In this document: positions 1 to 41,376 of the stretch, piece after piece
Layout of the letters: the number at the start of each line of letters is the position of its first letter
Position numbering within the stretch: the stretch's first letter is position 1
Assembly (NCBI RefSeq): GCF_056746865.1
Contig: NZ_CM163382.1
DNA: 64,000 bases
Direction: 5' to 3' (one strand)
Made by a program: the position numbers and the translations under genes
The notes under the pieces: generated by a model
Databases searched by the model: none
Seen by the model: the letters and a program-made list of their open reading frames with translations, nothing else
Told to the model about the DNA's origin: nothing

Positions 1-215
1 TGGATGCGTTACGCTCCTGATGACGTCATTTGACGTTCAACAGCATCACGGGGCCGCGCGACATTTCACGTCAGTCAGTGCTATCGCTCAGGAACAAATT
101 TTCCCGAATTGGGATATGCCCGCAAATTGCTGGTGATGTGGGGAGAATCTGGTTGAGTTCGGTAGAAATGATTTTTAGGCAGAACGCTTAAATTGTGGCG
201 TCCTGAAACGAAAAA

Positions 216-235
216 CGGACCTCCGTGGAGGTCCG
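216..235 (-). terminator. Rho-independent terminator-like hairpin (9-bp stem cggacctcc/ggaggtccg, T-run on minus strand); likely the native terminator downstream of the tRNA-Phe 3' remnant
   Basis: Perfect inverted repeat at 216-224/227-235 followed on the minus strand by TTTTTCGTTT; sits immediately 3' of the tRNA-Phe fragment. Confidence 0.5.
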
Positions 236-247
236 TTTATATGAATT

Positions 248-265
248 TGGTGCCCGGACTCGGAA
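248..265 (-). repeat. Island-junction direct repeat: 18-nt exact copy of the 3' end of tRNA-Phe (TTCCGAGTCCGGGCACCA), attR-like
   Basis: Reverse complement of 248-265 equals the 3' terminus of E. coli tRNA-Phe; only the 3' part of the tRNA is present, as expected for the distal att repeat of a tRNA-integrated island. Confidence 0.6.
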
Positions 266-513
266 TGAAACTGGTTATATAACCAATTGTTTTGTATCGA
301 CTGTTTTATCCTTGTTCTTTTTGGGGCCACCAATGAGGCCCCCATGTGCAATTCGAATTCTTTTGACGCTATAATCCCTCTTTTTTGTGCTTTGTTGTAA
401 TCATTTTGTCTGGTTCGATATGCTGAATCGCGGAATCGAAGTAACAACAAAATACAGAGATTTATAAAATACCTGGCTACCTGTGTTAGGGAGCGTTAAC
501 GCACAGATTTTGT

Positions 514-840
514 TTATGGCTGCCAGAAATGATCTGATGGTTTGTCGTCTGGCTCTGCAAGTACCCTGTTGATATCCCGGGAACCATGAACGATACGTTC
601 GATACGAACTTCAGTATCCAGTACCCTGAACAGCAGAAGGTAACGACCATACGAACAACCTCTGATCCCAGCCCCTAACTCGGGTCTTTCTCTGTAGAGT
701 ACTGGCGATTCGGCTATCAACAGACATTGTTGGTAAAGCTCTTCGGTAAAACTGATTGCACGGACAGGATTATCCTGAGCGATCCAGTCACCTATAGCTT
801 CAAGATCGTGTTCTGCTAATGGTGAAACAGTCAGTTTCAT
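514..840 (-). CDS. parE: Type II toxin, ParE/RelE family
   Basis: 108-aa ORF with ParE-like sequence; 4-bp overlap with the upstream antitoxin ORF. Confidence 0.75.
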   Translation of the reverse strand: MKLTVSPLAEHDLEAIGDWIAQDNPVRAISFTEELYQQCLLIAESPVLYRERPELGAGIRGCSYGRYLLLFRVLDTEVRIERIVHGSRDINRVLAEPDDKPSDHFWQP

Positions 841-1100
841 ATTGGCTGTTCACCTTCTGCCATCTTTTTGTATTTGTGCGTCAGTCGCCCGAATACCTCT
901 TCAGCACTTTTACTTTCACCGCTGTTGATGCCTGCGGTCACGGCGCTCTGGAGTGATTCAAGCTTTATCTGCTGTTCCCGTTCTTCCAGAGCACGAAGTC
1001 CGGCACGAATGACTTCACTTGTATTGTTATACCGACCACTTTCTATTTGTTCGCGGATAAACGTTTCAAAGTAAGGACTGAGGGATACACTGGTAGGCAT
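837..1100 (-). CDS. parD: Type II antitoxin, ParD family (ribbon-helix-helix)
   Basis: 87-aa ORF, ParD-like N-terminus (MPTSVSLSPYFETFIREQIESGRYNNTSEVIRAGLRALEE); translationally coupled to parE. Confidence 0.75.
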   Translation of the reverse strand: MPTSVSLSPYFETFIREQIESGRYNNTSEVIRAGLRALEEREQQIKLESLQSAVTAGINSGESKSAEEVFGRLTHKYKKMAEGEQPI

Positions 1101-1171
1101 GGTGATTTTCTCGCCGATTGATTACTATCAATTAATAATAGTTAATATTCGCGAATTGTAAAATACCTCTT

Positions 1172-2038
1172 TTATGCCTTGCGGCTTTTGTTCACTGTGC
1201 TTGCCAGGGCTTCCGAGTAGTGTCTGGCAATAATATCATTAAGCCTGTCAACCAGTTCTGGTTTCCTGAACGTGATGTGCGCGGAGCCCTTCTTAAAGTA
1301 TCTGATGCTGAACATCTCATCTTCATAGTCCTCTTTACCCTGAACAGACTGGATGTGGTCATCCAGATGAATGGTGATGTTTTCCCGGTTGTCGGGGATC
1401 GGTTTGCCGCTGAACAGATACAGCATTCTTTCCAGGTCGGCAAGTCGATCTGCCTGTTGCCCGGTGATAAGATGAAACCCCCACCGGTCCCACCTCACCA
1501 GGTTGTTGACGATAATTTTACTGCCAAATTTACAGGGTGAATTGTTTTCGTAATTCCAGCTCAGTCCCCTGAAAACATTGATCACCCCACGCTCAAACAC
1601 TTCATCTTTGTTCTGGTGCAGTTGTTCAAATGTGCTCAGAATGTTCGCTTCACTGATTTCCGGAAAATTATCGTATTCCAGTGACCGGTACCATGTATCA
1701 CGGGCCTGCGCATCCATTAATGACAGCATCCCGGAACGTTGCATCAGGTCACGCCAGATTTCGCGATCGAGATTGCGGGTGATGGCTTTCATTGCTGTTT
1801 CCGGTTTATCCATCAGCCAGCAGCCACAGCGAAAATCCTGTTTCATGGCCCAGTCCCGGGCGGTTTTACCTCCAATGCTTTCCGTCAGAACTGAGATTTC
1901 AGTCAGTTGCCGGATAAGTGTGTCGATTTGCAGCAGTGTACTCTTTCGTACAGCCAGAATGTGGCGGATACTGGTTGAGCAGATAACGTCCGTATGCCCG
2001 TTGACCACTTCCGGACGGGAGGCTGTGATATCAGACAT
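1172..2038 (-). CDS. DUF4942-like protein typical of CP4-type integrative elements
   Basis: 288-aa ORF; family recognised by memory of CP4-44/CP4-57 gene content; synteny downstream of the cbtA module. Confidence 0.55.
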   Translation of the reverse strand: MSDITASRPEVVNGHTDVICSTSIRHILAVRKSTLLQIDTLIRQLTEISVLTESIGGKTARDWAMKQDFRCGCWLMDKPETAMKAITRNLDREIWRDLMQRSGMLSLMDAQARDTWYRSLEYDNFPEISEANILSTFEQLHQNKDEVFERGVINVFRGLSWNYENNSPCKFGSKIIVNNLVRWDRWGFHLITGQQADRLADLERMLYLFSGKPIPDNRENITIHLDDHIQSVQGKEDYEDEMFSIRYFKKGSAHITFRKPELVDRLNDIIARHYSEALASTVNKSRKA

Positions 2039-2122
2039 AATCGATATTCCTTTTTGCAGATAAATGAAAACGCCAGCCCTGTTCAGGCTGGCGTCAGTGG
2101 AATGAAGTCTGGTGAGTAATAT

Positions 2123-2320
2123 TTACCGGTTCTGGTGCAGAAGCTGCAGATGACGAAGAGTACGGACATCCTCCCGGGCCCGTTCGATACAGGGCAACAG
2201 TGCTGCCGAATCCGTTTTATCCTCATCGTTGTCAAAGATAATTCCCGATTCGCAGTCGATATTGTCCTGCAGCCACACAATCAGAATATCCAGTGCTGTT
2301 TCCGTGGTTAATGATTTCAT
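2123..2320 (-). CDS. Small hypothetical protein, YeeW-like position
   Basis: 65-aa ORF between DUF4942 and the cbtA-associated ORF; overlapped by alternative frames, so coding status is uncertain. Confidence 0.3.
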   Translation of the reverse strand: MKSLTTETALDILIVWLQDNIDCESGIIFDNDEDKTDSAALLPCIERAREDVRTLRHLQLLHQNR

Positions 2321-2331
2321 GTTGTTCCTGG

Positions 2332-2820
2332 TTACCAGTCGAAAGTGGGCAGGTCAGGCAGGCATTCAGCGCTGGCATCCAGATGAATGAGACTGACGCC
2401 ATAACGCCGGATAAGAGTGACAACCAGACGGCGGAACGTTTTTGACAGTCCCAGGCGTTTAAGTCGCAGAACCGGGTATGACCACGCATCGGTACGTAAC
2501 AGATATCCGCTACCTGTAAAATGAATCCATTCTGATTCGCCGGTGTCATTCGTCTGATGTGACAGCGAGTACAACCAGGCATTGTCCGTTTCCGTGATAT
2601 GTGCGGTACTGCAGCGTATGCCGGTAAGGGCCGCAGATGGTGGCGTGCGCTCTGCTGATGCCCGGTCAGATTCATCAACAACACGAAGGGAGTAACCGTT
2701 ATCGCAGACCACGTTAATCAGTTCAGCGAGAGTAACACCATCGACGTCAACGACAATGCGCCCCATGTTCAGTGCCTGCACGTTAATGCTGTCGGCTTCC
2801 AGCGTCAGGGCCAGTTTCAT
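2332..2820 (-). CDS. Hypothetical protein translationally coupled to cbtA
   Basis: 162-aa ORF; its start overlaps the cbtA stop by 4 bp (2817-2820); no family recognised. Confidence 0.45.
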   Translation of the reverse strand: MKLALTLEADSINVQALNMGRIVVDVDGVTLAELINVVCDNGYSLRVVDESDRASAERTPPSAALTGIRCSTAHITETDNAWLYSLSHQTNDTGESEWIHFTGSGYLLRTDAWSYPVLRLKRLGLSKTFRRLVVTLIRRYGVSLIHLDASAECLPDLPTFDW

Positions 2821-3194
2821 TGTTTCGCCCCCGGATGTTTACCCAAGGTAATGTTATTTACCGTTCTGTAATTGTCGCGGGCCATCAGGCCGGTTGCCCG
2901 GCGGGCCCGGAGGATATCAATACTGTTTATTAACTGAGAACGGGTACAGGCGCTGAATCCCGGCTGGTCGGTACGTACCAGTGCGTATTTTTCAACGAGA
3001 AAGTTCACCGCATCGCACAGTGAAATGCCTGCCTCAATATGCTGCTCAATCACACGTTCATCAGCGAACGGTGTGTCATTCAGTGTGAGGCCGTAATGCT
3101 GGTCCAACAGTCGGGTGAGCAGTGTCTGCCAGATGGTGACGGGAGACGGGCAGCGCGATGCCTCCCGTACGTGTGTGTCAGGTAATGTTTTCAT
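2817..3194 (-). CDS. cbtA: Type IV toxin CbtA/YeeV family (cytoskeleton-binding toxin)
   Basis: Near-identity by eye to YeeV/CbtA from the internal Met (MKTLPD...HYGLTLNDTPFADERVIEQHIEAGISLCDAVNFLVEKYALVRTDQPGFSAC...); start placed at ATG 3192-3194 rather than the upstream in-frame ORF start. Confidence 0.85.
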   Translation of the reverse strand: MKTLPDTHVREASRCPSPVTIWQTLLTRLLDQHYGLTLNDTPFADERVIEQHIEAGISLCDAVNFLVEKYALVRTDQPGFSACTRSQLINSIDILRARRATGLMARDNYRTVNNITLGKHPGAKQ

Positions 3195-3240
3195 CTTAAG
3201 TTCTCTGTAACTGGTAGTGCTAAAGGTGAGATATTCGGGG

Positions 3241-3615
3241 TTATGAGGTGGTTGCGGGTGCCAGTGTCGGATAAACAGCCATATAAACGTAACCACAGCT
3301 GCCGAGGGTGTCGGCTTCGCAGGTCAGCCCTCTGGCATACAGCGTGACGGTATGCTGATGGCGGGGATTCAGTTCACCGCTGGTGAGCATGAGTTCCAGT
3401 TGTTTCATCAGCAGCGGAAAGGCCTGGTCCAGATGATACGCATCCGCGTCGCTAAACTGCCCCCTGATACCGGCGCGGTCGGCAAGGTAATGCAACTGAT
3501 TGCCCTCCTGCACCAGACGTGCCCCGAAACAGGGCGTCACGGTGCAGGGGAGCCCCCACCAGGGGCGGTCGTTGTTGTTGTCGGGATGCGTTGTCCCGGG
3601 GTGTGTGTCTGACAC
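3241..3615 (-). CDS. cbeA: Type IV antitoxin CbeA/YeeU family
   Basis: MSDTHPGTT...DRPWWGLPCTVTPCFGARLVQEGN..LHYLADRAGIRG.FSDADAYHLDQAFPLLMKQLELMLTSGELNPRHQHTVTLYA matches YeeU; immediately upstream of cbtA. Confidence 0.85.
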   Translation of the reverse strand: MSDTHPGTTHPDNNNDRPWWGLPCTVTPCFGARLVQEGNQLHYLADRAGIRGQFSDADAYHLDQAFPLLMKQLELMLTSGELNPRHQHTVTLYARGLTCEADTLGSCGYVYMAVYPTLAPATTS

Positions 3616-3694
3616 GATAAAATCCTCACAGAAAATCGGTTAAGAATGCTCCGATGGTGGCGATAATTCGGCTCATCAGAATGCCCTTTCTGAT

Positions 3695-3916
3695 TCAGTT
3701 CAGGGTAACGCTCATCAGACGGACATACGGACCAAAACTGTCCTTACGGCGTTCAGCAAACACGGCCAGCACACCGGGAATATCCTGCACTTCACGGCCG
3801 GTATACGTATCCGTGCTACCGTGCCAGCGGTATTTACCGGTACAGAACGGAAAAAGACGGGATGCAGGATGCTGTTGGTGAATACGCATGGCTTCACCAC
3901 GGGTGATGATTTTCAT
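3695..3916 (-). CDS. yeeT: YeeT-like DUF987 protein
   Basis: 73-aa ORF MKIITRGEAMRIHQQHP.SRLFPFCTGKYRWHGS...VRLMSVTLN, canonical CP4 synteny. Confidence 0.75.
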   Translation of the reverse strand: MKIITRGEAMRIHQQHPASRLFPFCTGKYRWHGSTDTYTGREVQDIPGVLAVFAERRKDSFGPYVRLMSVTLN

Positions 3917-3978
3917 AATGGGATACCTCTGAAGACAGAAGATAAAAGTGAAAACAGGTGTGATGTGGTTGTGACGGG

Positions 3979-4470
3979 TTAAAGCAGACCGTGTTCGGCA
4001 AAGGAGAATACCTGGTTGCCACCGACTATCAGATGGTCCGGCACCCGGATATCCACCAGGGCCAGCGCCTGTACCAGACGTTCAGTGATAAGCCGGTCTG
4101 CCTTACTGGGGGTGACTTCACCGGACGGGTGATTGTGCGCCAGCACCACGGCAGCGGCATTGTGGTACAGGGCACGTTTAATCACCTCCCGGGGATGGAC
4201 TTCTGTGCGGTTGATGGTGCCTGTGAAGAGGGTTTCACCCGCAATCAGCTGATTCTGGTTGTTCAGATACAGCACCCGGAACTCTTCCCGCTCCAGTCCT
4301 GCCATGTTCAGAATCAGCCATTCCCGTGCCGCATGCGTGGAGGTGAAGGCCACGCCGGGCTCATGAAGATGACGGTCCAGGGTTTTCAGGGCCCGCTGAA
4401 TGAGGCTGCGCTCGCCGGGCGTCATCGCTCCGGGCAGAAAGGAAAGCTGTTGCATTATGCTTCTCTCCAT
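3979..4470 (-). CDS. yeeS: RadC-like JAB-domain protein (YeeS/YfjY family)
   Basis: HNHPSGEVTPSKADRLITERL motif (JAMM-like HNHPSG); the start could instead be the internal ATG at 4453-4455. Confidence 0.75.
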   Translation of the reverse strand: MERSIMQQLSFLPGAMTPGERSLIQRALKTLDRHLHEPGVAFTSTHAAREWLILNMAGLEREEFRVLYLNNQNQLIAGETLFTGTINRTEVHPREVIKRALYHNAAAVVLAHNHPSGEVTPSKADRLITERLVQALALVDIRVPDHLIVGGNQVFSFAEHGLL

Positions 4471-4950
4471 TCAGTCGATGATGCGCATAATGGCGCTGCA
4501 TTCCGGATGCTGCAGGGCGTAATCCCGCAACCGATAATAATGGACCGTCATGGCATAATTCTCCGTACGACAGGCGTGATGACTGTACGTCATCAGACAG
4601 GCGGCAATGCCGGCGGCTTCCGGGCTCATTTCAGCGCGGTTACCGTTCATGACGTTAAACAGCACCCATGTTTCGTCATCATCGTCATCCGGTTCGGGTG
4701 CCATAAATGCGCCACCGTTGTTCAGGGTGTACAGATTCCAGATACCACCGCAGTAGTCTTCACACAGACGGTCCATCCAGCCGAAGACACGGGGCTCCAG
4801 GGTCACCCACTGTGGAATGAGGCCAAAATGCTGCGGCCAAAAGCTGATGCGCTGTTCATCAGGGACGAGGCTGGCAACCAACTGAGGCGGATTATTCTCT
4901 GGTGTTGTAGCTGAATAAATTGTGGGGGTATTCTGAGAAACGCTTTTCAT
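4471..4950 (-). CDS. Antirestriction protein (ArdB/KlcA-like, YfjX/YafX family)
   Basis: 159-aa ORF with acidic DDDDDE stretch; conserved position next to radC-like gene. Confidence 0.65.
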   Translation of the reverse strand: MKSVSQNTPTIYSATTPENNPPQLVASLVPDEQRISFWPQHFGLIPQWVTLEPRVFGWMDRLCEDYCGGIWNLYTLNNGGAFMAPEPDDDDDETWVLFNVMNGNRAEMSPEAAGIAACLMTYSHHACRTENYAMTVHYYRLRDYALQHPECSAIMRIID

Positions 4951-5031
4951 GAGATAACTCCTTAAATAACAAATAAAAGTGTGTTTTTCAGGAACGAAAG
5001 CTGAATGATTCCCTCACTCAGGGAAACGGCA

Positions 5032-5850
5032 TCAGCGCAGGCTCTCCAGCATCGTTTCTGCCATCACCCACAATGCGCGGTTGAGTTTAATATCGGTGTC
5101 GATGCTGTGAATGGCCCGGGTATGGATACGTTTTCCTTTTGCACTGCGACCGGAAATCCCGCCTTTCAGCATATTCTCCTGGATGGTCTGATATGCGCTC
5201 CACAGGTCCTTACCGTAATCCTCCCGGCGTCGCGGCGTCAGAATGTCGGCGGTGGTGACGGGCTGATGTTCGTCACCATAACGGTAAGTCAGTGCCGCCT
5301 GTGCCAGCGCCTGGCGTGCCGGTGGCGGCAGGACCAGCGACTGCATGGCATCACGCTTCTCCTCTATCCGGTCAAACACGCCCACCACTTCGTAAGCCCC
5401 TTCAATGACTCTGTCCACCACATTTCCCCGGTGCGGAACACGCACTTCCCCCAGAGACTGGCCACAGACGCACCCGTTCTGGCAGACGAACCTGAAGTAA
5501 CCCGGCAGCATCTGGTAGCTGGAGGTACCGTCATGAGAGTTGAGCAGAATAATTTCAGGGACATGTTCTCCGTTTATCTCTCCGGCCCGCCGCAGACGCA
5601 GCATGTGTTTGGTATATTCCCGGCGGCTCTGGTCGCGCACACGGGTCTGGCAGGCGAAGAACGGCTGAAAGCCTTCCCGCTGCAGATTTTCCAGGACGGT
5701 AATGGTGGGAATGTACGCATACCGTTCACTGCGGGAGGTGTGCCGGTCTTCTCCAAAAATACTCGGGACGTGGTACATCAGTTCTTCGCGTGTCAGTGGG
5801 CGCTCCCGACGGATCTGATTTACATGACCAAAACGACTGGCTAATTGCAT
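5032..5850 (-). CDS. DUF932 protein (YafZ/YfjQ-neighbour family)
   Basis: 272-aa ORF; family recognised by sequence memory and synteny. Confidence 0.55.
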   Translation of the reverse strand: MQLASRFGHVNQIRRERPLTREELMYHVPSIFGEDRHTSRSERYAYIPTITVLENLQREGFQPFFACQTRVRDQSRREYTKHMLRLRRAGEINGEHVPEIILLNSHDGTSSYQMLPGYFRFVCQNGCVCGQSLGEVRVPHRGNVVDRVIEGAYEVVGVFDRIEEKRDAMQSLVLPPPARQALAQAALTYRYGDEHQPVTTADILTPRRREDYGKDLWSAYQTIQENMLKGGISGRSAKGKRIHTRAIHSIDTDIKLNRALWVMAETMLESLR

Positions 5851-5939
5851 ACTTTGCTCCTTATGAATGAATTAGCGGTATAAACGAAAAAGCCGCGTCT
5901 CCCGGAGAAGACGCGGCCTGATGGATGAAATGAAGACGT

Positions 5940-6173
5940 TTATTGCCTGAGAATTCCCTCACTGGCGAGATACGAATTTAGCTGTTTTCCGGCATCAGGT
6001 TCAAAATTCCAGCACCGCCAGCGTAGCTGCCCTTCGGCATTGCGGATAACCAGCCGGAAATGCGTTCCCTGGTCATCTTCAATAAGCACATTGCGGTAAG
6101 CTGTTGTGACGGCAACCGCCTGTTCGCGTGAGAAAGGGCCTTCGGGCAATAAAACAGGGTGGCAGTCCGACAT
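5940..6173 (-). CDS. DUF905-like small protein (YkfF family)
   Basis: 77-aa ORF in the conserved CP4 slot. Confidence 0.5.
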
Positions 6174-6178
6174 ACCGA

Positions 6179-6856
6179 CTATTTTCCGATAAATTCAACG
6201 CTGGCGCTGGTGGCATTACCGTCAGCACCAACCGTGACGGTCACTTTGTCGTACGCACGGTCTTCAGGATTGAATACTTCAAACTCAACCTTATTGCCTT
6301 TTACTTCGTAAGAGCCAAAATCAGCGGTTTCTGTTGTTTCCTCGTCATATTCCCGGGCGTATGCCTGCCGGGCAGCCTGCAGGACGGAATCTTTATTAAT
6401 AGTGGTCGTCTGTTTCGGGGAAAAACCGGCAAGTGATGTGACAAATTTCGGACAGACCTTCAGCATATCACCGCGGGTGAATTCCATTCGTACACCAAAT
6501 GCCTGTAAAACGGACACATCACGCTCTGCTATGGAGTGAACGGCTTTTTTGACCATTTCCGGCGCCTGTCCGATTTCCACCTCAACAGCCCTGAATCCCG
6601 TCTGCTGATTACACATTTGTGATGTGGGGATCAGGTTACCGTTAATACTGATACGGCTGCCCAGGAGCGTCTGTACACCATTCGGGCATCCCTGCATCAG
6701 GCCAGTAATACCAATCGTGCCATTTTTCAGCATTACCAGCGCCTGACCATCTTCCGTCATGGTCTGACACCAGCCGTTTTTGACAGCCCAGTTGCCGGCG
6801 GAGGCGGAGAATGATGCCACAGTGAACAGCAGGGGAAAAAGAGCTCTGGTATTCAT
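6179..6856 (-). CDS. Exported hypothetical protein with signal peptide
   Basis: Start placed at internal Met ([20 protein letters not shown]...), a classic signal peptide; upstream in-frame extension lacks signal-peptide character. Confidence 0.5.
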
Positions 6857-7003
6857 GACTGACCTCTGAAATGAACGTACGGTGTTATTGATAATGATGG
6901 AAGGTATGCAGTGACTGTTCAGGGAATGACGTAGCCGTATATTTAGTTTTCTGTTCAACATATTGTCTCCATACCTGTCGGGACGGCTTTGGCAGGCCGG
7001 CGA

Positions 7004-7684
7004 TCACAGGTTAAAGGTGTTGATAAGTTTATGGATGAAAGAGAAATGTGGCAGGGCGGAGATAAAACGCTCTTCAGCGACCAGACTGTGGATGTGGCCT
7101 CTCCGTTCAAACCGTTCTGATGTCAGGCTGACTGATTTGATATCTGCCAGAGGAAAGACCTGCAGTTTTCCCTTCTGTAACGCGATCAGATACCAGCTAC
7201 CGCTGTAATAAATGAGCCGGCAGGGCTCCAGTGACGGATACCATCGCTCAGTCATCAGAGAGATGTGGATACACTGTCTTATTGCCAGGATGAGTTGCGA
7301 GAAACACTCGGGGAACGTTGCAGTGATATCCGGCGCCGGTAGCCAGATAAGGCAGGGAGAGGGCTCCTGGTTGTCGGTAAGACAGGTTATCAGTCGTCCG
7401 TTCCGGAGCGGAAGTATCCGTGCGATCCCGGTATTCTGTATAAAAGAAAGCATTTCAGGGATCGCACCTGGGCTGCTCTGTCGTCTGAGACTGTACCGGC
7501 CATTTCTGTACTCTAAGTCCAGGTGAACCAGACGCTGATGAAAATCGCGCTGTAAAGTACGTTCTGTAACGCCAAATTCATCTGACAGTGTTTTTAGTGA
7601 CAGAGATTCTCCGGCCATCAGTCGGCTGATAATGAGTGATAAGCGAACCGCCAGGCGATCATGCCGGGAACGATTATCAGACAT
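7004..7684 (-). CDS. HTH/WYL-domain transcriptional regulator (YfjR-like)
   Basis: 226-aa ORF with N-terminal HTH (LSLKTLSDEFGVTERTLQRDF) and C-terminal WYL-like region (YYSGSWYLIA). Confidence 0.6.
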   Translation of the reverse strand: MSDNRSRHDRLAVRLSLIISRLMAGESLSLKTLSDEFGVTERTLQRDFHQRLVHLDLEYRNGRYSLRRQSSPGAIPEMLSFIQNTGIARILPLRNGRLITCLTDNQEPSPCLIWLPAPDITATFPECFSQLILAIRQCIHISLMTERWYPSLEPCRLIYYSGSWYLIALQKGKLQVFPLADIKSVSLTSERFERRGHIHSLVAEERFISALPHFSFIHKLINTFNL

Positions 7685-7886
7685 AGATGTGCACTCCGTA
7701 AGAAAACATCTTTTATTTCATGATGTTATTATGCATCATGATGTTGAAAGGATGTGTCGCATCCGGATAATCAGGAATAAAATGCAGCAGAAAAAATATT
7801 CTTTTAATTATCTGATTTTTAAGCATGATTTCATAAAAAGAAGAATGCTTGTTAATCCAGCGACACATCCTGTCGGCGTGAGTGTG

Positions 7887-8771
7887 TCAGAACAGACGAT
7901 CCCACAGTGTGACCAGCAAGTGGATAATGCGGTCCCGGGCCTTACGCAGAAGCTGTAACATCCAGGCCGGAAAGCTGAATTGGGCAACGGCAGCGTCAAA
8001 GCTTTTCCCGATGGCGTCACCAAAAGTTTGTTGTGCGTGTTTCCGGGCCTGTTCAGAGCGGTTTTCCCCCCGGATATGTGAATAAACTGCGCTGGTTGCC
8101 TGTGGTGGCAGTGCGTGGATCATCAGCGACACCAGTGCCGGAAGATTCCAGCCGACAGGTGCGGCAACGGAGAGTACCGGAAATGATGACGGGAACAGGG
8201 TTGCCACCCGGGCTGTTACTGTCGCCAGTGAGAGTTCCTGCTGACGGGACGGGCATTTTTCTGTGTCGTTCCATTCTTCAGCAGGAAACACGCGATCGGC
8301 ATGGCTGAGAACAAACAGAAAACGCGAGGGATCTGCACCTTCATTCAGTAAAAACTGATGCATGGCAATATCAGCAGCATACGCACGTTCATCAGCCCGC
8401 AGGATCCAGATAATCAGATCCAGTTCCGGCAGTAACTGACGGTAAAGCTCCCGGTATTCCTGATCATGCTGCGGTGTCTCACCAATGCCGGGCATATCGA
8501 CCAGCGTCATTCTGCGTTCACCGAGCTGCAGGGTAAGACGATGAGCCTGGCGGGTGCAGCCGTTCAGGGGATGCGTGGCGCAGATACGGGACTGAAAAAT
8601 GGCATTACACAGACTGCTTTTGCCGGTGCCGGATTTACCCATAATGCCAATTACGGGCTCGTAATGAATAACACCGTGGAGATGTTCAAGGATTTTCTGG
8701 CGAATTTCTTCAGGAAGAAACGTCAGATATGATTTTACTTGTGCAGAGAGGGAAGAATGGCTGAATGACAT
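7887..8771 (-). CDS. YfjP/YeeP-family GTPase
   Basis: P-loop GIMGKSGTGKSS and G3-like motif DMPGIGE in a 294-aa ORF. Confidence 0.75.
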   Translation of the reverse strand: MSFSHSSLSAQVKSYLTFLPEEIRQKILEHLHGVIHYEPVIGIMGKSGTGKSSLCNAIFQSRICATHPLNGCTRQAHRLTLQLGERRMTLVDMPGIGETPQHDQEYRELYRQLLPELDLIIWILRADERAYAADIAMHQFLLNEGADPSRFLFVLSHADRVFPAEEWNDTEKCPSRQQELSLATVTARVATLFPSSFPVLSVAAPVGWNLPALVSLMIHALPPQATSAVYSHIRGENRSEQARKHAQQTFGDAIGKSFDAAVAQFSFPAWMLQLLRKARDRIIHLLVTLWDRLF

Positions 8772-8955
8772 ACCGGTATCCTGTTGATTTCGCTGAACCG
8801 GATCACACTAATCCGGTTTATCATTCAGGTAATATGGACGTGAAAAATGATGGAATGTCTGAATTACGGACATGATTGTTAAAGTGTAATGGAGTATGAA
8901 GTGAGTTTTTCCGAACGGGAACTAATGACATACTGCGGTTTCAGGAGATGAGAGG

Positions 8956-10086
8956 ATGACCGGACGTAAAAACAAATGTGTCAGAAAAAATTGTAACAAT
9001 CAGGTTTTCTCAGTAAAAATGGCAGTGGAGAAAAGACTGTGCAGAAAACATTATGAGAGGTTTTGTGAGCTCAAAAAAAGAAGAGAGCAAAATCCTGTTC
9101 ACAGATTAAATGAAGCATTGCCAAGAAAGATAAAAGGACCAAAAAGTAAGAAAAAATTAGTAAAAGAAAGAGAAATCATTAACAGCAGAAAAAAACATAA
9201 ACAGGAGCAGGGACCATCGCTGACTGAACTTAATAAAAAAGTTCGTGAGATACTGAAAACTCCTGCATGGAGAACGCTGGAAACGAGAATTCGAAGAAAC
9301 GGAATCACATTTAAGTCAAAAGCAGAGTTAGATGCGCTTTCTGAACTTTATGCAATTTATTCATGGGTTTCATATTGCAAACGGGGCGATAATTATTCTG
9401 TGTGGTTTTTGAATTGTCCGGATGTAAATATAAACCTTCATGTGTGCGAATGCCGGTCTTCTGAAAGCGATTGTTATCTGCCATCTCGTTTTATTATTCT
9501 TCCAGCTCCATTAAGGCAAAAAGTAAAAAGAAAATACTCGGCTAATTCGTCTGGGGTACCAGGACATAATGATTCAAAAAGTCTTTATAAGACAGTTTTG
9601 TCTGTTTGTGGTGGGAAAAGAGAAACCGAATTGTTCTTTTATTCACTGCCAGTAAAGACTAATCATCATCCTTACTGGATTAAAAGTGGTGTGGTTAAAA
9701 GATTTCCTCCTGTTTTTGGTTTGTTGTTTTATGAACAGGAAAGATTAACAGGAGGTGTTTTTCGTTATGTGTTGATAAGGTTTTATAATACTTTTAAGGA
9801 GAATTTGTTTTTTGTTGAGATTGTCTCGTGCTGTTTTCTTGTTGAGCTTTTTCATGATATTGATTCGTTTTTTATAAATCAACGATTAAGTAAGCTGGAA
9901 AGTTTTATAGATAAGTGGAGGGAGGGTAAAGAAATCTGGATAAAAGCATATCTACAACTGATACATAATACATTGGGAATAACTGAAACAGAAAAACTCG
10001 TCAATCTATATAATTCATTTTTTACTGATAAAGTGGTTATCTGGGATGAATCAGTAAAAAAAGTTAAGTGGATTTATGAGAAATAG
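8956..10086 (+). CDS. Hypothetical protein, 376 aa, Cys/Lys-rich N-terminus, no recognisable family; visibly AT-rich foreign gene
   Basis: Long stop-free ORF in AT-rich DNA (unlikely by chance), RBS aggag upstream of ATG; N-terminal C-x6-C...C-x2-H-x4-C and a lysine-rich tract; aromatic-rich C-terminal half. Confidence 0.55.
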   Translation: MTGRKNKCVRKNCNNQVFSVKMAVEKRLCRKHYERFCELKKRREQNPVHRLNEALPRKIKGPKSKKKLVKEREIINSRKKHKQEQGPSLTELNKKVREILKTPAWRTLETRIRRNGITFKSKAELDALSELYAIYSWVSYCKRGDNYSVWFLNCPDVNINLHVCECRSSESDCYLPSRFIILPAPLRQKVKRKYSANSSGVPGHNDSKSLYKTVLSVCGGKRETELFFYSLPVKTNHHPYWIKSGVVKRFPPVFGLLFYEQERLTGGVFRYVLIRFYNTFKENLFFVEIVSCCFLVELFHDIDSFFINQRLSKLESFIDKWREGKEIWIKAYLQLIHNTLGITETEKLVNLYNSFFTDKVVIWDESVKKVKWIYEK

Positions 10087-10619
10087 TACCATTTAACTGA
10101 AAGCCACCATAACGTCTTTTTGACTACATCCATGATAATGAGTCTCATTTTGATTTCGTTTTTTTTGTTTCGGGAAATTTTCCGAACATCAGTGATAATG
10201 AGGGTTTTGTTGTTTTTGTTTCTGCAATGTTTGAGGGCTGTTCCTGGAGATGATTCGTTGCTTGTGAGCAAGAGGTGGTCCGCTTTACTGGACAAGTTTT
10301 GCATTTGTTGAGTGGTGAAATGGAAGTAAAAAGAGCCCCTTTCTGGCAATGACTGAAAAAGTCAGTAGCGTGTGACAGTAAAAACTAACATAAAGTGATT
10401 ATCGTATGATTATGACAATGACTTATAACTTTTATGAAAAGAACAACAGAAACTATGAAACCATAGCAGATTCCTGAGACCATGTTTTCTGAGGTAGAGA
10501 AAATAATTCAAGAGTAAACCAGTTTGTTTTTTGGTCAGTAAAGAACCATGCCTGATGTGAAAACGGGTAATCAACATTCAGTCTGCATGAATGTCTGAGA
10601 ATGTTGCTAATGTCGGTAT

Positions 10620-10760
10620 GATACTATATACACGTATTTTACTAAGTATTTTTACTAAGCATTTCAGTAAGTGTTTTACCAGACATACACGTGTTTTCAT
10701 AAACAGCCCTATAAGTGTTTTCATTAAGCATTGCTGTACACATTGCTTTGTCTGAAACAC
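10620..10760. repeat. Iteron-like short direct repeats (ACACGTATTTT / AGTAAGTGTTTT / ACACGTGTTTTC / ATAAGTGTTTTC) in AT-rich noncoding DNA
   Basis: At least four closely spaced copies of a TGTTTT/TATTTT-cored motif read directly in the sequence. Confidence 0.4.
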
Positions 10761-11601
10761 ATCCAGTTTAGTAAATCTTTACGTTAGCTAAAATCAGTTT
10801 AAAGCTGCTGTAAAACCTTTCTGTTTAAGCAATCAATCTGCTATTCGATTTTACTGATGTTGCGTTTAACCTTTTCTGAGTTTTTGTGTTTTTAGTCGTT
10901 AACCTGAGACAAGTGTCTTTACGTAAAAACGCAAATCCGACTGAGATAACCTGGTGTGATTTACGGTGTGCTTGCGACGATTTTGTTAAATGGTTCTATG
11001 GATGATTTTGTGACGATGAGATTGATGAGATGATTAACTGGCCCTGGTGTTTTTTCTCAGTGCAAGGTGATTATCTTCATCATAAGGCTCTTTTCAGAAA
11101 AAGCGTGATGATTGGTTCTGGTGTTTTGATTCAGATGAGATTTACGTTATCGATGGTTAATCGTTTTTATGGTGTGTTGAAAAGTAACGTTTTCACGATA
11201 AGAAAATCGATTCTGATATTGGTGAACTTTGTTCTTGTGGCAGGGTTATCTGTAAACAGGTTTTAAGTGCGCTATTCGGCTCTGTGATTGAGTTGTGTGG
11301 TTAAGCTGTAGGTTTTGGTGTTGTTGTTGATTTACAGCGCCAGAAAGCGTTCTGATTGCGTTTTTGATGTTTTGTTTGCACGTTCTGTTGATCCGTTTCC
11401 CTTCAGGCTTTGTAGTTTTTAAAAACCATTTATGCCGTTGTTGTGTGTTTTATCCTGCGTGTAGGTTTATCTTTTCTTCGTGGGGGATTCATTCTGTTTT
11501 AATCAGGAGCCATTGGCGTTGCTCAATGGCGGGATGCCGTAAAGTTTTACCGCAGTGATTAATGATGTGAAGTCAATCCAAATCAACGGAGATCTCTCAT
11601 C

Positions 11602-12333
11602 ATGAATCAACCAATACACAATGCTTACTGGTTATCCCGTTTTGAAAGTATTCTCAACAGTGCCCTGGCGCAACACCGTGCCGTCTCGTTAATCCGGGTG
11701 GATTTACGTTTCCCTGAGTATATGCCTGCCACCATCATGGATACCGATTTAGATTCAGCGGTGATTTCTCGTTTTTTTGCATCCCTGAAAGCAAAAATTC
11801 AGGCTTACCAGCGACATAAACGACGTGCCAACAAGCGTGTGCGTGCAACCACTCTGCGTTATTTCTGGTGTCGGGAGTTTGGCAAGGAAAAAGGCAGGAA
11901 ACATTATCACGTGATATTACTGCTCAACAAAGATACCTGGTGCTCGCCAGGGGATTTCACCGTTCCTTCTTCGCTGGCGACACTGATCAAGCTGGCATGG
12001 TGTAGTGCTCTGCATCTTGAGCCCTGGCAGGGTAATGGACTGGTTCATTTTTCCAGGCGGACGCCTTTCCGTAAACCGACATCATCTGATGCTCGCCCTT
12101 CTTCCGATGATACGCCTTTGTCGGGTGGATGTTCTGATACCAGGAAGGCTTCAGACAAAAAGCCGGGTGAAGCCGCTGTTCTCTGGATCAAGCGTGGTGA
12201 TGTGGAAGCGCTGCAGAAAGCCCGGAACAGAGCCAGTTATCTCGTGAAATATGAGACGAAGCAGCATGACGGTTCCGGGCAACGTAATTATGGTTGCAGT
12301 CGTGGGCCGGGGCGTCTGCTGGATGGCAGGTGA
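11602..12333 (+). CDS. Inovirus Gp2-like protein (YagK/YfjJ family) of CP4-type elements
   Basis: N-terminus MNQPIHNAYWLSRFESILNSALAQHRAVSLIRVDLRFPE recognised from memory of the YagK family; RBS ggag 12 nt upstream. Confidence 0.55.
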   Translation: MNQPIHNAYWLSRFESILNSALAQHRAVSLIRVDLRFPEYMPATIMDTDLDSAVISRFFASLKAKIQAYQRHKRRANKRVRATTLRYFWCREFGKEKGRKHYHVILLLNKDTWCSPGDFTVPSSLATLIKLAWCSALHLEPWQGNGLVHFSRRTPFRKPTSSDARPSSDDTPLSGGCSDTRKASDKKPGEAAVLWIKRGDVEALQKARNRASYLVKYETKQHDGSGQRNYGCSRGPGRLLDGR

Positions 12334-16506: not shown

Positions 16507-17329
16507 AGGGAGATGAAAAAGGCAATAGCAGAACTGAGTGACAGTGAAACCATTCTGGCGTACAGGGTTGGATGGTGAAACTGATAAAAAAACCCTCTGA
16601 AAATTCTGTCAGAGGGTGTAGTCAAAAATGGTAGATATTTACGATGCAGTAATGCTTTCACTCCGGTAATTAATTTCCGTGATTAACTGCTTTCGATCAA
16701 TAAAGGAATTGCAAAAGTGTGATCTTGTTCACGACATCGTGGATGATAATATGCCTGATGTCTGAATCCGGAAACAGTGCTCTGGCGGGTTTCATGTGAA
16801 GTTGACGGATAAAAAATCCGCACGACCAGACAGACGTGCGGTTTACGAAATTCGTAACAAGAGGCTTTTCTACGGATCACGTGGTGCGTGCCACGTGAAA
16901 TTTTTGTAGCGCAAAATGTGCAATGTGTAAATACAAGGAAGGAAAAAAGTTAAATTGGTAGAAGTCCATGCCTGCCACATGTACGTCTGCATTCCTCGTT
17001 TTGAACAGAATTCTCACCAGACATCGTGAATTTCTCATTCAATCATCAGAGATATTAACCAGGATTTTTATTGTTTTGTGATATCAGCAGTGCAGGTATA
17101 CAGACGTTAAAGTAATCAGGTTTATTATAACCACCTTTACAAAGTTGTATATGTTTATAATTTAATGATTTTAATGCCAGTCGTTTTCTGCTGCTTAAAT
17201 TGAGGTCGCATATTATACACAATAATATTCTTAGCATTATTAAATTAATAAGAGAGGATTCTTATCACTGTATTTTTGCTCCGCACTACCGTTCTGGCTG
17301 GTGAAGTAATAATACAGGAGAATAACAGA

Positions 17330-18871
17330 ATGCTTAAAAGACGTGATGCTTTTTTAAAGAAAAGCGCGCTGGCAGTGAGTGTGGCCCTGCTGCTCTCGGC
17401 TCAGGCTCAGGCTGTTTTGACAGGGCCTGTTGATGGTAATTCTTCCAGCTTACTGATTGGAGAAAACTCTTTTATTACGAATTTAACTGGTACAGTTAAT
17501 AACACTTTCCTTTTGGGAGGTGGCGCTTTTAACCTGGATTCACCAGGAAGTCTTCAGTTTGGCTCTTTTTCGGAAGTGTATAATTCTCCACACAGTGTCA
17601 CCCTGGGAAGGGATGCCGGTCAGGCTGAGTCAAAATATGGTGTTGCCATAGGTAAGAGCGCTGAGGTATTTAATTCACAGCATAGTGTTGCTATTGGGGG
17701 ATGGGCTGGAATAGAAAATTCTTCAGGCTCTGTAGCTCTGGGCCATGGCTCACAGGTGTCGGGAGAAAATAACGTGGTATCTGTTGGTGCCGGGCCTGAG
17801 GGATATGGAAAGAGTGTCAAAGGAGCACCGGAAACCCGCCGGATTATAAATGTGTCTGATGGTATCAATAACACAGATGCAGCGACGGTAGGGCAACTGA
17901 ATGAACGATTTGATGATGCACAGGTCTTTTTGTTGCAGACGAATGAAAGAATTGACGAGACAGATAAACGTCTTTCAACAGTTCATGCTGAACTCAGCAG
18001 GGATATTATTGCAGGCACATCGGCAGCGGTGACGTATACAGATGTAACAGCGCTTGCACTTCAGGATGAGATAAAGGATGGGACGAACAAAGTACGTGAT
18101 GAGTTGAAATCACAGGGAGACAGTCTGCGTGGTGAGATAGGCGGTGTATACAGAGATGCCCGTGCTCATACTGACAGTCAGGTCACAGCAGTACGTGATG
18201 AACTGAAGGCAGAGGGAGACAGTCTGCGCGGTGAGATAGGCGGTGTATACAGAGATGCCCGTGCTCATACTGACAGTCAGGTCACAGCAGTACGTGATGA
18301 ACTCAGCAGGGATATTATTGCAGGCACATCGGCAGCGGTGGCGTATACGGATGCATCTTCTCTTGCTCTTCAGGATGAAATAAAAGAAAAAGCGGATGAA
18401 ACAGTTCAGGTTTCCCGGGCTTATACAGATAAAAGTGTACGGGATGCCCGTAAAGAAGCGAAAAGCCAGGCAGAACATCTCAGCGATGTGCTTGTGAAGA
18501 ACAGGGCGCAGACGGATGCAGCAATAGCCTCAAATACAGCAGCGATAAGGAATAACAGTCATCGTCTGGATTTGACGGAAGCCTGGCAGAAGATGGCGAC
18601 AGAGAGAATGAATAATATGCAGGAGCAGATTAAAGAGAACCGGAAGGAGTTAAGGGAGAGTGCAGCCCAGAGCGCGGCACTGGCCGGTCTTTTCCAGCCA
18701 TACAGTGTTGGAAAATTTAACGCGACAGCAGCCGTTGGTGGTTACCGTGATGAGCAGGCCATTGCGGTGGGCGTGGGCTACCGTTTCACAGAGAATGTGG
18801 CAGGAAAAGTTGCAGTTGCTGCAGGTGGGTCATCCGCATCGTGGAATGCTGGTGTGAATTTTGAGTTCTGA
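17330..18871 (+). CDS. Trimeric autotransporter adhesin, YadA-like (possibly Eib/Saa-like), 513 aa
   Basis: Signal peptide ([28 protein letters not shown]), head repeats (GVAIG, SVAIGG, SVALGH), neck motif [11 protein letters not shown], coiled-coil stalk with repeats, C-terminal anchor ending NAGVNFEF. Confidence 0.8.
18092..18289 (+). repeat. Two near-identical 99-bp tandem repeats within the adhesin stalk (33-aa units), plus a third partial unit
   Basis: Units start at 18092 and 18191 and differ at only a few positions; a further roughly 45-bp direct repeat at 17984-18036 and 18296-18348. Confidence 0.85.
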
Positions 18872-18892
18872 CAGGTCAGGATTTAGATATCT

Positions 18893-20265
18893 GTCCCGGG
18901 GGGAGTCCCCATAAGCGCTAACTTAAGGGTTGTGGTATTACGCCTGATATGATTTAACGTGCCGATGAATTACTCTCACGATAACTGGTCAGCAATTCTG
19001 GCCCATATTGGTAAGCCCGAAGAACTGGATACTTCGGCACGTAATGCCGGGGCTCTAACCCGCCGCCGCGAAATTCGTGATGCTGCAACTCTGCTACGTC
19101 TGGGGCTGGCTTACGGCCCCGGGGGGATGTCATTACGTGAAGTCACTGCATGGGCTCAGCTCCATGACGTTGCAACATTATCTGACGTGGCTCTCCTGAA
19201 GCGGCTGCGGAATGCCGCCGACTGGTTTGGCATACTTGCCGCACAAACACTTGCTGTACGCGCCGCAGTTACGGGTTGTACAAGCGGAAAGAGATTGCGT
19301 CTTGTCGATGGAACAGCAATCAGTGCGCCCGGGGGCGGCAGCGCTGAATGGCGACTACATATGGGATATGATCCTCATACCTGTCAGTTCACTGATTTTG
19401 AGCTAACCGACAGCAGAGACGCTGAACGGCTGGACCGATTTGCGCAAACGGCAGACGAGATACGCATTGCTGACCGGGGATTCGGTTCGCGTCCCGAATG
19501 TATCCGCTCACTTGCTTTTGGAGAAGCTGATTATATCGTCCGGGTTCACTGGCGAGGATTGCGCTGGTTAACTGCAGAAGGAATGCGCTTTGACATGATG
19601 GGTTTTCTGCGCGGGCTGGATTGCGGTAAGAACGGTGAAACCACTGTAATGATAGGCAATTCAGGTAATAAAAAAGCCGGAGCTCCTTTTCCGGCACGTC
19701 TCATTGCCGTATCACTTCCTCCCGAAAAAGCATTAATCAGTAAAACCCGACTGCTCAGCGAGAATCGTCGAAAAGGACGAGTAGTTCAGGCGGAAACGCT
19801 GGAAGCAGCGGGCCATGTGCTATTGCTAACATCATTACCGGAAGATGAATATTCAGCAGAGCAAGTGGCTGATTGTTACCGTCTGCGATGGCAAATTGAA
19901 CTGGCTTTTAAGCGGCTCAAAAGTTTGCTGCACCTGGATGCTTTGCGTGCAAAGGAACCTGAACTCGCGAAAGCGTGGATATTTGCTAATCTACTCGCCG
20001 CATTTTTAATTGACGACATAATCCAGCCATCGCTGGATTTCCCCCCCAGAAGTGCCGGATCCGAAAAGAAGAACTAACTCGTTGTGGAGAATAACAAAAA
20101 TGGTCATCTGGAGCTTACAGGTGGCCATTCGTGGGACAGTATCCCTGACAGCCTACAAAACGCAATTGAAGAACGCGAGGCATCGTCTTAACGAGGCACC
20201 GAGGCGTCGCATTCTTCAGATGGTTCAACCCTTAAGTTAGCGCTTATGGGGGAGTCCCCCGGGAT
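18893..20265 (+). mobile_element. IS4-family insertion sequence with about 38-bp terminal inverted repeats
   Basis: IRL cccggggggagtccccataagcgctaacttaagggttg (18893-) and IRR caacccttaagttagcgcttatgggggagtcccccggg (-20265); transposase ORF 18959-20077 has the IS4 YREK signature (Y-RL-R-WQI-E-LAFKRL-K). Confidence 0.7.
18959..20077 (+). CDS. IS4-family DDE transposase
   Basis: 372-aa ORF, YREK motif, bounded by the element IRs. Confidence 0.7.
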   Translation: MPMNYSHDNWSAILAHIGKPEELDTSARNAGALTRRREIRDAATLLRLGLAYGPGGMSLREVTAWAQLHDVATLSDVALLKRLRNAADWFGILAAQTLAVRAAVTGCTSGKRLRLVDGTAISAPGGGSAEWRLHMGYDPHTCQFTDFELTDSRDAERLDRFAQTADEIRIADRGFGSRPECIRSLAFGEADYIVRVHWRGLRWLTAEGMRFDMMGFLRGLDCGKNGETTVMIGNSGNKKAGAPFPARLIAVSLPPEKALISKTRLLSENRRKGRVVQAETLEAAGHVLLLTSLPEDEYSAEQVADCYRLRWQIELAFKRLKSLLHLDALRAKEPELAKAWIFANLLAAFLIDDIIQPSLDFPPRSAGSEKKN

Positions 20266-25739: not shown

Positions 25740-25813
25740 TGTAATGTTTCAACACCATGTATTAATTGTGTTTATTTGTAAAATTAATTTTTCTGACAAT
25801 AACATTTCTCATT

Positions 25814-25832
25814 GATAATGATAATCATTATT
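25814..25832 (+). promoter_or_regulatory. Fur box in the iucA promoter
   Basis: GATAATGATAATCATTATT matches the Fur consensus GATAATGATAATCATTATC at 18 of 19 positions, about 40 bp upstream of iucA. Confidence 0.85.
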
Positions 25833-25874
25833 GACATAATTGTTATTATTTTACTGTGTAGGAGCTGTTTGATT

Positions 25875-27599
25875 ATGATCCTGCCCTCTGAAAAATCCGC
25901 CACAGATGTGGCTGCGCAGTGCTTCCTGAATGCCTTGATTCGTGAAACCAAAGACTGGCAACTGGCGGAATACCCGCCAGACGAATTGATTATCCCGCTG
26001 GACGAACAGAAGTCGCTCCATTTCAGAGTGGCTTATTTCTCCCCAACCCAGCATCACTGCTTTGCATTTCCTGCTCATCTGGTCACGGCATCAGGCAGTT
26101 ATCCTGTCGATTTTACCACTCTCTCCCGGCTTATTATTGACAAGCTCCGGCATCAACTTTTTCTGCCAGTTCCCCTCTGCGAAACTTTCCACCAACGCGT
26201 GCTGGAAAGCTACGCCCATACGCAACAGACAATTGATGCCCGCCATGACTGGGCCATCCTGCGTGAGAAAGCGTTGAATTTTGGCGAGGCTGAGCAGGCA
26301 CTGCTGACAGGACACGCTTTCCACCCTGCACCTAAGTCTCATGAACCGTTTAACCGCCAGGAAGCTGAACGATACCTGCCTGACATGGCACCTCACTTCC
26401 CGCTGCGGTGGTTTTCGGTGGATAAAACGCAAATCGCTGGTGAAAGTCTGCATCTTAACCTTCAACAGCGGTTGACGCGATTTGCCGCAGAAAATGCGCC
26501 CCAGTTACTCAACGAATTAAGTGACAATCAATGGCTGTTCCCGCTGCACCCGTGGCAGGGAGAATATCTTTTGCAGCAGGTGTGGTGCCAGGCACTTTTT
26601 GCTAAAGGACTTATCAGAGACTTAGGCGAGGCCGGCACGTCGTGGCTGCCGACCACCTCTTCCCGCTCCCTCTACTGTGCTACCAGCCGCGATATGATCA
26701 AGTTCTCCCTGAGCGTTCGGCTGACCAACTCCGTCCGTACTCTGTCTGTGAAAGAGGTGGAGCGAGGAATGCGCCTGGCACGTCTGGCGCAAACCGACGG
26801 CTGGCAGATGCTACAGGCCCGCTTCCCTACTTTCCGGGTAATGCAGGAGGACGGCTGGGCCGGGCTGCGCGATCTTAACGGCAACATCATGCAGGAAAGT
26901 TTGTTTTCCCTGCGTGAAAACCTGCTGCTGGAGCAGCCGCAAAGCCAGACCAACGTTCTGGTTTCCCTGACTCAGGCCGCACCGGATGGCGGTGATTCGC
27001 TGCTGGTTTCGGCGGTAAAACGCCTGAGCGATCGCCTCGGTATCACTGTGCAACAGGCCGCCCACGCATGGGTCGATGCTTACTGTCAGCAGGTGCTGAA
27101 GCCTCTGTTTACGGCTGAAGCGGATTACGGCCTGGTGCTGCTGGCGCATCAGCAAAATATTCTTGTGCAGATGCTTGGGGATCTGCCGGTCGGATTTATT
27201 TACCGTGACTGCCAGGGCAGCGCGTTTATGCCTCACGCGACAGAGTGGCTCGATACCATTGACGAGGCGCAGGCGGAAAATATTTTCACCCGTGAGCAGT
27301 TGCTGCGCTATTTCCCTTATTACCTGCTGGTTAACTCCACTTTTGCCGTAACTGCTGCGCTGGGTGCTGCCGGGCTGGACAGCGAAGCGAATCTGATGGC
27401 TCGTGTACGAACATTGCTGGCTGAAGTGCGTGACCAGGTGACTCATAAAACCTGTCTCAACTATGTTCTGGAAAGTCCGTACTGGAACGTAAAAGGTAAC
27501 TTTTTCTGTTATCTGAACGATCATAACGAGAACACCATCGTTGACCCTTCGGTGATCTATTTTGATTTCGCTAACCCGCTGCAGGCTCAGGAGGTCTGA
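25875..27599 (+). CDS. iucA: Aerobactin synthetase IucA
   Basis: IucA/IucC-family protein; start at ATG 25875 with RBS ggag (the upstream in-frame extension is AT-rich leader). Confidence 0.9.
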   Translation: MILPSEKSATDVAAQCFLNALIRETKDWQLAEYPPDELIIPLDEQKSLHFRVAYFSPTQHHCFAFPAHLVTASGSYPVDFTTLSRLIIDKLRHQLFLPVPLCETFHQRVLESYAHTQQTIDARHDWAILREKALNFGEAEQALLTGHAFHPAPKSHEPFNRQEAERYLPDMAPHFPLRWFSVDKTQIAGESLHLNLQQRLTRFAAENAPQLLNELSDNQWLFPLHPWQGEYLLQQVWCQALFAKGLIRDLGEAGTSWLPTTSSRSLYCATSRDMIKFSLSVRLTNSVRTLSVKEVERGMRLARLAQTDGWQMLQARFPTFRVMQEDGWAGLRDLNGNIMQESLFSLRENLLLEQPQSQTNVLVSLTQAAPDGGDSLLVSAVKRLSDRLGITVQQAAHAWVDAYCQQVLKPLFTAEADYGLVLLAHQQNILVQMLGDLPVGFIYRDCQGSAFMPHATEWLDTIDEAQAENIFTREQLLRYFPYYLLVNSTFAVTAALGAAGLDSEANLMARVRTLLAEVRDQVTHKTCLNYVLESPYWNVKGNFFCYLNDHNENTIVDPSVIYFDFANPLQAQEV

Positions 27600-31563: not shown

Positions 31564-31644
31564 GGAAAACGCAGCCGGAGGCTGCTTCTTTAACTCGCTA
31601 CACAGCATCTTTGGGCTGATTTTTTCCGCCCGTGTGGAGGAATA

Positions 31645-39906: not shown

Positions 39907-39938
39907 AATTCAGTACCTATAGTGAGCAAAATTAGAAC

Positions 39939-39960
39939 AAACATAGCAACGGCTATGTTT
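39939..39960 (-). promoter_or_regulatory. MntR-box-like palindrome upstream of sitA
   Basis: AAACATAGC-aacg-GCTATGTTT inverted repeat about 30 bp upstream of the sitA start. Confidence 0.6.
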
Positions 39961-39982
39961 TATAGCATAATCTATACAAATG

Positions 39983-40000
39983 CAAATGGTTATCATTAAT
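39983..40000 (-). promoter_or_regulatory. Fur-box-like sequence upstream of sitA
   Basis: AAATGGTTATCATTAATG has partial match to the Fur consensus; weaker than the iucA box. Confidence 0.4.
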
Positions 40001-40239
40001 GTATTTGTTTGTAAGTGATGAGATGCTCTTCCTCTCCTTCACGACAGCCTTCAATTACGCCATGATGGATAAACTGTAACCATAAAAGGAGAAATGTACT
40101 GAACACATCCTGCCCTGTTAAGAGAGGTGCACTGTGATGGATGAAGGGTAAAATTGTCTGCTGTGGAGCCTCTCAGATTTCCGGCATCATAGTGCCCAAT
40201 ACGGGATGCAAAAGCGCCCTCAGACTGGCGACTCCACAA

Positions 40240-41287: not shown

Positions 41288-41376
41288 GCCAGTTATTAAA
41301 ACCCCTTTTGATTTGTTAAAACACCTTGCGGTCTGGCAACTGCAAGTGTCAAACAAGAAATCAAAAGGGGGTCCCA

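Follow-up and report, generated by a model that had tools for sequence, protein, structure and literature searches.

The window analysed here, a single stretch of 64,000 nucleotides, carries at its low-coordinate edge a copy of the 3′ end of a tRNA gene, read on the minus strand. The plus strand reads TGGTGCCCGGACTCGGAAT at positions 248–266; reverse-complemented, this is exactly the terminal 19 nt of E. coli tRNA-Phe with the CCA included, and alignment with K-12 pheU returned a match at 19/19 positions; when the comparison was carried beyond the exact 19 nt, out to position 271, 22/24 positions were identical. On the minus strand the repeat and the following 4 nt read TTTCATTCCGAGTCCGGGCACCA. 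The 19-mer is present as a single copy in the window, even with up to three mismatches allowed. Based on the K-12 alignment, its uniqueness and its agreement with the 19-bp attR class of GI-pheV (PMC11537424), this segment (248–266, minus) was designated the attR core, a direct-repeat copy of the tRNA-Phe (pheU) 3′ end. An earlier note on this DNA had described an 18-nt tRNA-Phe 3′ copy ending at position 265; its identity and strand were retained, while its length and end were corrected to 19 nt and 266.

The repeat is separated by a 9-nt spacer (AATTCATAT, 239–247, minus; identical in K-12) from a Rho-independent-type terminator, that of pheU (203–238, minus). A terminator pattern scan placed the hairpin at 238–213 (minus), with 11 base pairs, 6 of them G-C, and a 4-nt loop, followed by TTCGTTTCAG. 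Judged by its sequence, the element thus combines a G+C-rich hairpin with a T-rich tail at 212–203, the run after the stem being TTTTTCGTTT. The fold energy of segment 270–198 (minus) was −23 kcal/mol (z = −3.0 versus shuffles), and the same hairpin stands downstream of the intact pheU gene in K-12. The minus-strand hairpin reported in the earlier note was therefore recovered, with its low end at 213 in place of 216. In the window this pheU terminator is detached from its tRNA gene. Any current function of the detached element is one that we infer, and it is possible that it ends the transcript of the island genes parDE today.

Window positions 1–266 aligned without gaps to the cadC-yjdQ-pheU interval of K-12 (259/266 identical). 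Similarity ended at base 267, within the K-12 pheU gene, after the alignment had taken in the pheU terminator and the 3′-terminal 19 nt of that gene. From the cadC start codon to the repeat is 617 bp, which puts the repeat in exactly the same place as the pheU 3′ end in K-12. The order of the site in K-12 MG1655 is cadC, yjdQ (a pseudogene), pheU and dicD, and the interval found in the window is missing there, whilst in strain MDR_56 cadA, cadB, cadC and an integrase pseudogene are followed by the window's genes. In a megablast search of complete E. coli genomes (queries: window 1–2500, 1–25000, 38000–47000, 40001–64000 and 56500–62000), segment 1–2500 adjoined cadC in many genomes and was present at a coverage of at least 80% in 467/5,426. 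The other tRNA-Phe locus, pheV, carries this island end (parDE and CP4-like module) in SMS-3-5, beside kpsF; homology to the window began exactly at 248 and ran into the island, with a different flank and a different terminator.

Because the window is collinear with K-12 up to 266 and diverges at 267, inside pheU, we are highly confident that a large genomic island, inserted by site-specific recombination into the 3′ end of pheU upstream of cadC in E. coli, has its attR (distal) junction at positions 203–266. Comparison with the empty site in K-12 thus showed the pattern expected of an island end, and the exact end for annotation purposes is 266/267. The proposal of an island boundary at the low-coordinate edge was upheld by two independent limits, namely the collinearity break with K-12 at 267 and the start of the SMS-3-5 homology at 248.

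Two classes of tRNA-Phe attR have been published, one of 19 bp, which reads TTTCATTCCGATTCCGGGCACCA, and one of 23 bp in which a single base is deleted, TTCGATTCCGAGTCCGG-CACCA (PMC11537424). The window repeat, together with its adjoining nucleotides, belongs to the 19-bp class without the G-to-T change; since the substitution carried by the CFT073/EC958 class is absent, the repeat is a perfect 19-mer. The window island resembles GI-pheV and GI-pheU (PMC11537424, PMC7686366) in having a direct repeat of the tRNA-Phe 3′ end as attR and in its mosaic modular cargo with a yee/CP4-like module. Those islands carry an integrase beside the intact tRNA gene at the other end, an arrangement that for the window was encountered in relatives. 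The published GI-pheV resides at pheV, whereas the window island resides at pheU. Islands at pheU and pheV have the same integrase gene and may occupy either site (PMC7686366), and SMS-3-5 shows the island end at the alternative tRNA-Phe site, as that study reports. Comparison with known pheV and pheU islands, as the earlier note had suggested, showed that the repeat fits a published attR class and that SMS-3-5 carries this end at pheV.

The sequence on the low side of the terminator consists of a leader (85–202, minus), running from the terminator to the start of a relic integrase and homologous to the leader between pheU and the integrase at attL of strain PK8261; the first 11 codons of yjdQ (IALTDVKCRAA; 52–84, minus), with the start codon decayed to ATA at 84–82, located by tblastn with the PK8261 integrase and by annotation; and the start of an integrase C-terminal remnant (RDAVERQM...; 1–50, minus), supported by tblastn and RefSeq pseudogene annotations. 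The remnant aligned from residue 359 of the 420-aa integrase and continues off the window towards cadC. In tblastn of the PK8261 integrase against the relic (combined E = 5e-10), residues 1–11 and 359–420 aligned, residues 12–358 were deleted, and the C-terminal part contained a frameshift and a stop. The relic is a pseudogene homologous to P4-type integrases, rather than a functional member of the family. The yjdQ pseudogene covers window positions 1–84 and is expected to continue for ~ 106 bp upstream of the window.

When the flank was compared with attL of PK8261, the spacer, the hairpin and ~ 120 nt of leader aligned, up to the integrase start codon. The relic measures ~ 350 bp and was found in K-12 and in three other E. 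coli genomes examined; cadC follows it directly in K-12, MDR_56, PK8261 and EC6563. The K-12 counterpart, yjdQ (b4654), likewise stands between cadC and pheU and shows an identical internal deletion of the integrase; it directly follows intact pheU, whereas in the window the island separates the two. The term ‘yjdQ’ was not found in a literature search, the K-12 RefSeq annotation being the sole basis of the name. No Rfam family matched window positions 1–1200 at E values up to 1, and therefore no known sRNA lies in the flank. Collectively, the low flank (1–247) is not pristine core DNA; it is what an older pheU island has left behind, namely its terminator, its leader and an integrase gene with an internal deletion.

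On the other side of the junction, a non-coding terminal stretch of the island (267–513), the same sequence here at pheU and in SMS-3-5 at pheV, leads to a parDE type II toxin-antitoxin pair (514–1100, minus; Pfam PF05016 and PF03693), the last genes of the island, with ParE encoded at 514–840 and ParD at 837–1100. A GGGGCC/GGCCCC inverted repeat at ~ 323–346 was considered as a parDE terminator and rejected, as a T-run followed the repeat on neither strand. The next segment, 1172–8771 (minus), is a CP4-like conserved module, assigned using Pfam and the RefSeq annotation of 99%-identical DNA. From 1172 upwards it encodes DUF4942, DUF957 and DUF5983 proteins, CbtA toxin, CbeA/YeeU antitoxin, a DUF987 protein, a RadC-like JAB protein, an antirestriction protein, DUF932 and DUF905 proteins, an HTH regulator and a GTPase. 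These genes are co-oriented and ordered as in the RefSeq annotations of relatives. Pfam matches to DUF4942, DUF5983, CbtA, CbeA, RadC-JAB, antirestriction, DUF932 and GTPase families were all above the gathering score, and with this set of families the CP4-like label is right, as is the placement of such a module at the distal end in the earlier note. We take the module to be linked to the CP4-44, CP4-57 and CP4-6 prophages of K-12. Just inside the CP4-like module, at 8001–12000, G+C content drops to 0.39–0.42, against ~ 0.49 window-wide; an inovirus Gp2-family gene and an ORF for a hypothetical protein of 376 aa are found in this interval.

The entire interval 267–64000 is island body. According to the annotations of PK8261 and EC6563, onto which the window was mapped, its cargo includes a YadA-like adhesin, iucABCD-iutA (25812–33846), sitABCD (36436–39906), iha (50810–52897), sodC, ICE remnants and many IS fragments; it is a strain-variable set of virulence genes and IS elements that is absent from K-12, i.e. 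accessory content. This single island carries three iron-uptake systems: the aerobactin genes iucABCD-iutA, the sitABCD genes and iha, a siderophore receptor/adhesin. The YadA-like region (17276–20077) is made up of two ORFs of 531 and 372 aa; the YadA-like gene of PK8261 is broken by IS5, which the window does not have. Decayed ICE genes lie at ~ 48.5–49.9 kb, where relatives are annotated with TIGR03756/TIGR03757 pseudogenes.

Two catalogued islands, likened to the present one by insertion site and cargo only, share its insertion at pheU and iucABCD-iutA: PAI-ED1a-pheU, 44 kb in size, with Iha and aerobactin, and SHI-3 of Shigella boydii, a 21 kb aerobactin island at pheU (PMC7545054). Of these, PAI-ED1a-pheU also shares iha with the window. 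The window island is much larger than either (> 63.7 kb in the window and 105–161 kb in relatives), and its cargo goes beyond theirs in sitABCD, the YadA-like adhesin, sodC and the ICE remnants.

No tRNA gene was detected by ARAGORN throughout the 64-kb window, a fuzzy search tolerating up to 4 edits (indels included) found no second tRNA-Phe-like fragment in it, and tblastn with both PK8261 integrases revealed no P4-type integrase homologue in it. In view of the absence of a second fragment and of an integrase, no island junction, tandem or otherwise, lies inside the window. The claim that the whole window is inside the island thus holds for 267–64000, and > 63.7 kb of the island is contained in it.

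The far end was examined in two relatives, while 467 genomes share the junction region 1–2500. PK8261 (NZ_CP080155.1) is collinear with window positions 1–45725 at 99.0–99.9% identity. Its locus runs from dsbD, dicD and pheU through a first integrase, a pap/resistance island, a CP4-like module and a degenerate repeat to a second integrase, raffinose genes, a type I R-M system, mobI, PhoX, the iha segment, amiC and sodC, and ends with sit, iuc, YadA, a CP4-like module, parDE, the 19-mer, yjdQ and cadC. Two exact copies of the 19-mer stand there as direct repeats 161,025 bp apart. EC6563 (NZ_CP095856.1) has a single island, in the order dicD, pheU, integrase, island, repeat, yjdQ and cadC, with its direct repeats at a distance of 105,051 bp. 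In both genomes the intact tRNA gene shares the strand of the repeat and is followed by a tyrosine integrase, so that the layout foreseen in the earlier note, an intact tRNA-Phe gene and an integrase beyond the high-coordinate end, is the one encountered in these relatives. For the present strain we infer an intact pheU and an integrase beyond position 64000, probably about 100–160 kb from the window repeat; IS elements have rearranged the island extensively, and part of it has the opposite orientation in PK8261, so that the relatives give no more than a rough guide to its length.

The ~ 105-kb pheU island of EC6563 and the distal island of PK8261 have the same attR and the same yjdQ and cadC flank as the window, and both carry integrase WP_001218742.1 at their proximal end. 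This protein is identical in the two genomes, being the second integrase in PK8261 and lying directly beside pheU in EC6563. The internal junction between the two PK8261 islands consists of a tRNA-Phe 3′ copy with a 1-nt deletion, followed by the second integrase, at about 4605433–4605454 of NZ_CP080155.1 (fetched locus L004, 30434–30455), and corresponds exactly to the published 23-bp attR class. PK8261 thus holds two islands in tandem, and the integrase nearest to the window-type repeat is consequently not the one beside the tRNA gene in that strain. The position of WP_001218742.1, adjoining pheU in EC6563 and internal in PK8261, suggests that the pap/resistance island of PK8261 entered after the island that carries WP_001218742.1.

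Relative to PK8261, window positions 45123–64000 are inverted. The pivot of the inversion is a 603-bp IS3 fragment (window 45123–45725), present in PK8261 as inverted copies at 4637767–4638369 and 4667704–4668306 of NZ_CP080155.1, and the window layout equals that of PK8261 with the ~ 30-kb segment between the IS3 copies flipped. In EC6563, sodC, IS3, SgcJ and iha are adjacent as in the window, but this block is turned the other way with respect to cadC. A further difference from PK8261 is an IS66-family (ISEc22-like) element at 58086–60539, which is missing from PK8261. Its terminal inverted repeats begin GTAAGCG..., and the 8 bp duplicated at the target (CTTGTATC) lie at 58078–58085 and 60540–60547. 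By megablast, this insertion at 58086 was found in 0/5,426 complete E. coli genomes; being absent from the site in all genomes searched, it marks this strain. Segment 40001–64000 reached a coverage of at least 80% in none of the 5,426 genomes, and the full arrangement of the window was likewise found in none of them, close relatives being found. The island displays an arrangement unseen among 5,426 complete genomes, consisting of an IS3-flanked ~ 30-kb inversion and a private IS66-family insertion.

Other readings of the junction were weighed against an attR. For a chance match of the 19-mer to tRNA-Phe, beside an unrelated terminator, no support was found, although the terminator pattern scan was weak when taken alone (1 site versus 1.5 expected in shuffles). 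The 19-mer occurred in 0/100 dinucleotide-preserving shuffles of the window with up to three mismatches tolerated, and collinearity with the pheU locus of K-12 takes in the 19-mer, the spacer, the hairpin and 200 nt more, an alignment that refutes coincidence. Across ~ 350 kb of fetched related loci, all copies of the 19-mer belonged either to a pheU gene or to an island end, and 144 kb of DNA from the interior of islands in three of these loci (L002, L004 and L007) lacked the exact 19-mer; the recurrence in non-island contexts that the earlier note had warned of was thus not observed in these loci. We assign practically no probability to coincidence.

It is also very unlikely that pheU was destroyed by an event without site specificity, such as an IS insertion or a deletion, which would have left a 19-nt stump and no intact pheU at the other end. 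The far end does lie beyond the window, and the island is rich in IS elements and rearrangements, yet the break point coincides with the 19-bp attR class of P4-integrase islands at tRNA-Phe (PMC11537424), an identical junction occurs at pheV in SMS-3-5, no IS end was seen abutting base 267, and both relatives examined, out of the 467 genomes sharing the junction, keep an intact pheU and an integrase at the far end. Equally little credence was given to the repeat being an internal junction of a tandem array, with substantial island DNA continuing on its low side, despite the precedent of the PK8261 array at pheU, with its degenerate repeat TTCGATTCCGAGTCCGG-CACCA and second integrase, and despite the integrase relic with leader on the low-side flank of the window. 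That relic is only ~ 350 bp long and is present in K-12, and the next gene is cadC in each of the four genomes named above. In practice, present-day accessory DNA reaches no further out than the repeat, and a tandem array is true of it solely in an evolutionary sense.

An attR at this position would be explained by the recombination pathway inferred from established knowledge of P4-type integrases and tRNA islands (PMC11537424, PMC7686366). A P4-type tyrosine integrase would recombine the attP of the island with the last ~ 19–23 nt of the tRNA gene, and the island would provide a new 3′ end, so that the tRNA gene stays whole at attL, beside the integrase. The original 3′ end, its own terminator and the DNA downstream would be displaced to the distal end as attR, the piece seen in the window.

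The boundary itself is an already known, ordinary kind of feature, the far-end scar of a pheU island, with a textbook anatomy (tRNA 3′ repeat, displaced terminator and integrase relic) that raises no new question. For reading the rest of the sequence, its consequence is that all but the first 266 bases belong to one mosaic virulence island at pheU, beside cadC; as the window is island from 267 onwards, other findings in it are to be read as island cargo.

Since the flank is the relic, shared with K-12, of an island that occupied this tRNA gene earlier, the site records successive integrations. The relic and the tandem array of PK8261 together point to serial integration, presumably with newer islands nearest to the tRNA gene: each new island would enter the intact tRNA gene and older ones would be moved outward, a fossil generation being reduced to the terminator, leader and yjdQ. 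We lean towards the view that pheU is a layered record of serial P4-type integrations, in which the window boundary parts the current island of at least 64 kb from its fossil predecessor. The layered integration and the IS-driven inversion may be regarded as small illustrations of how such islands evolve.
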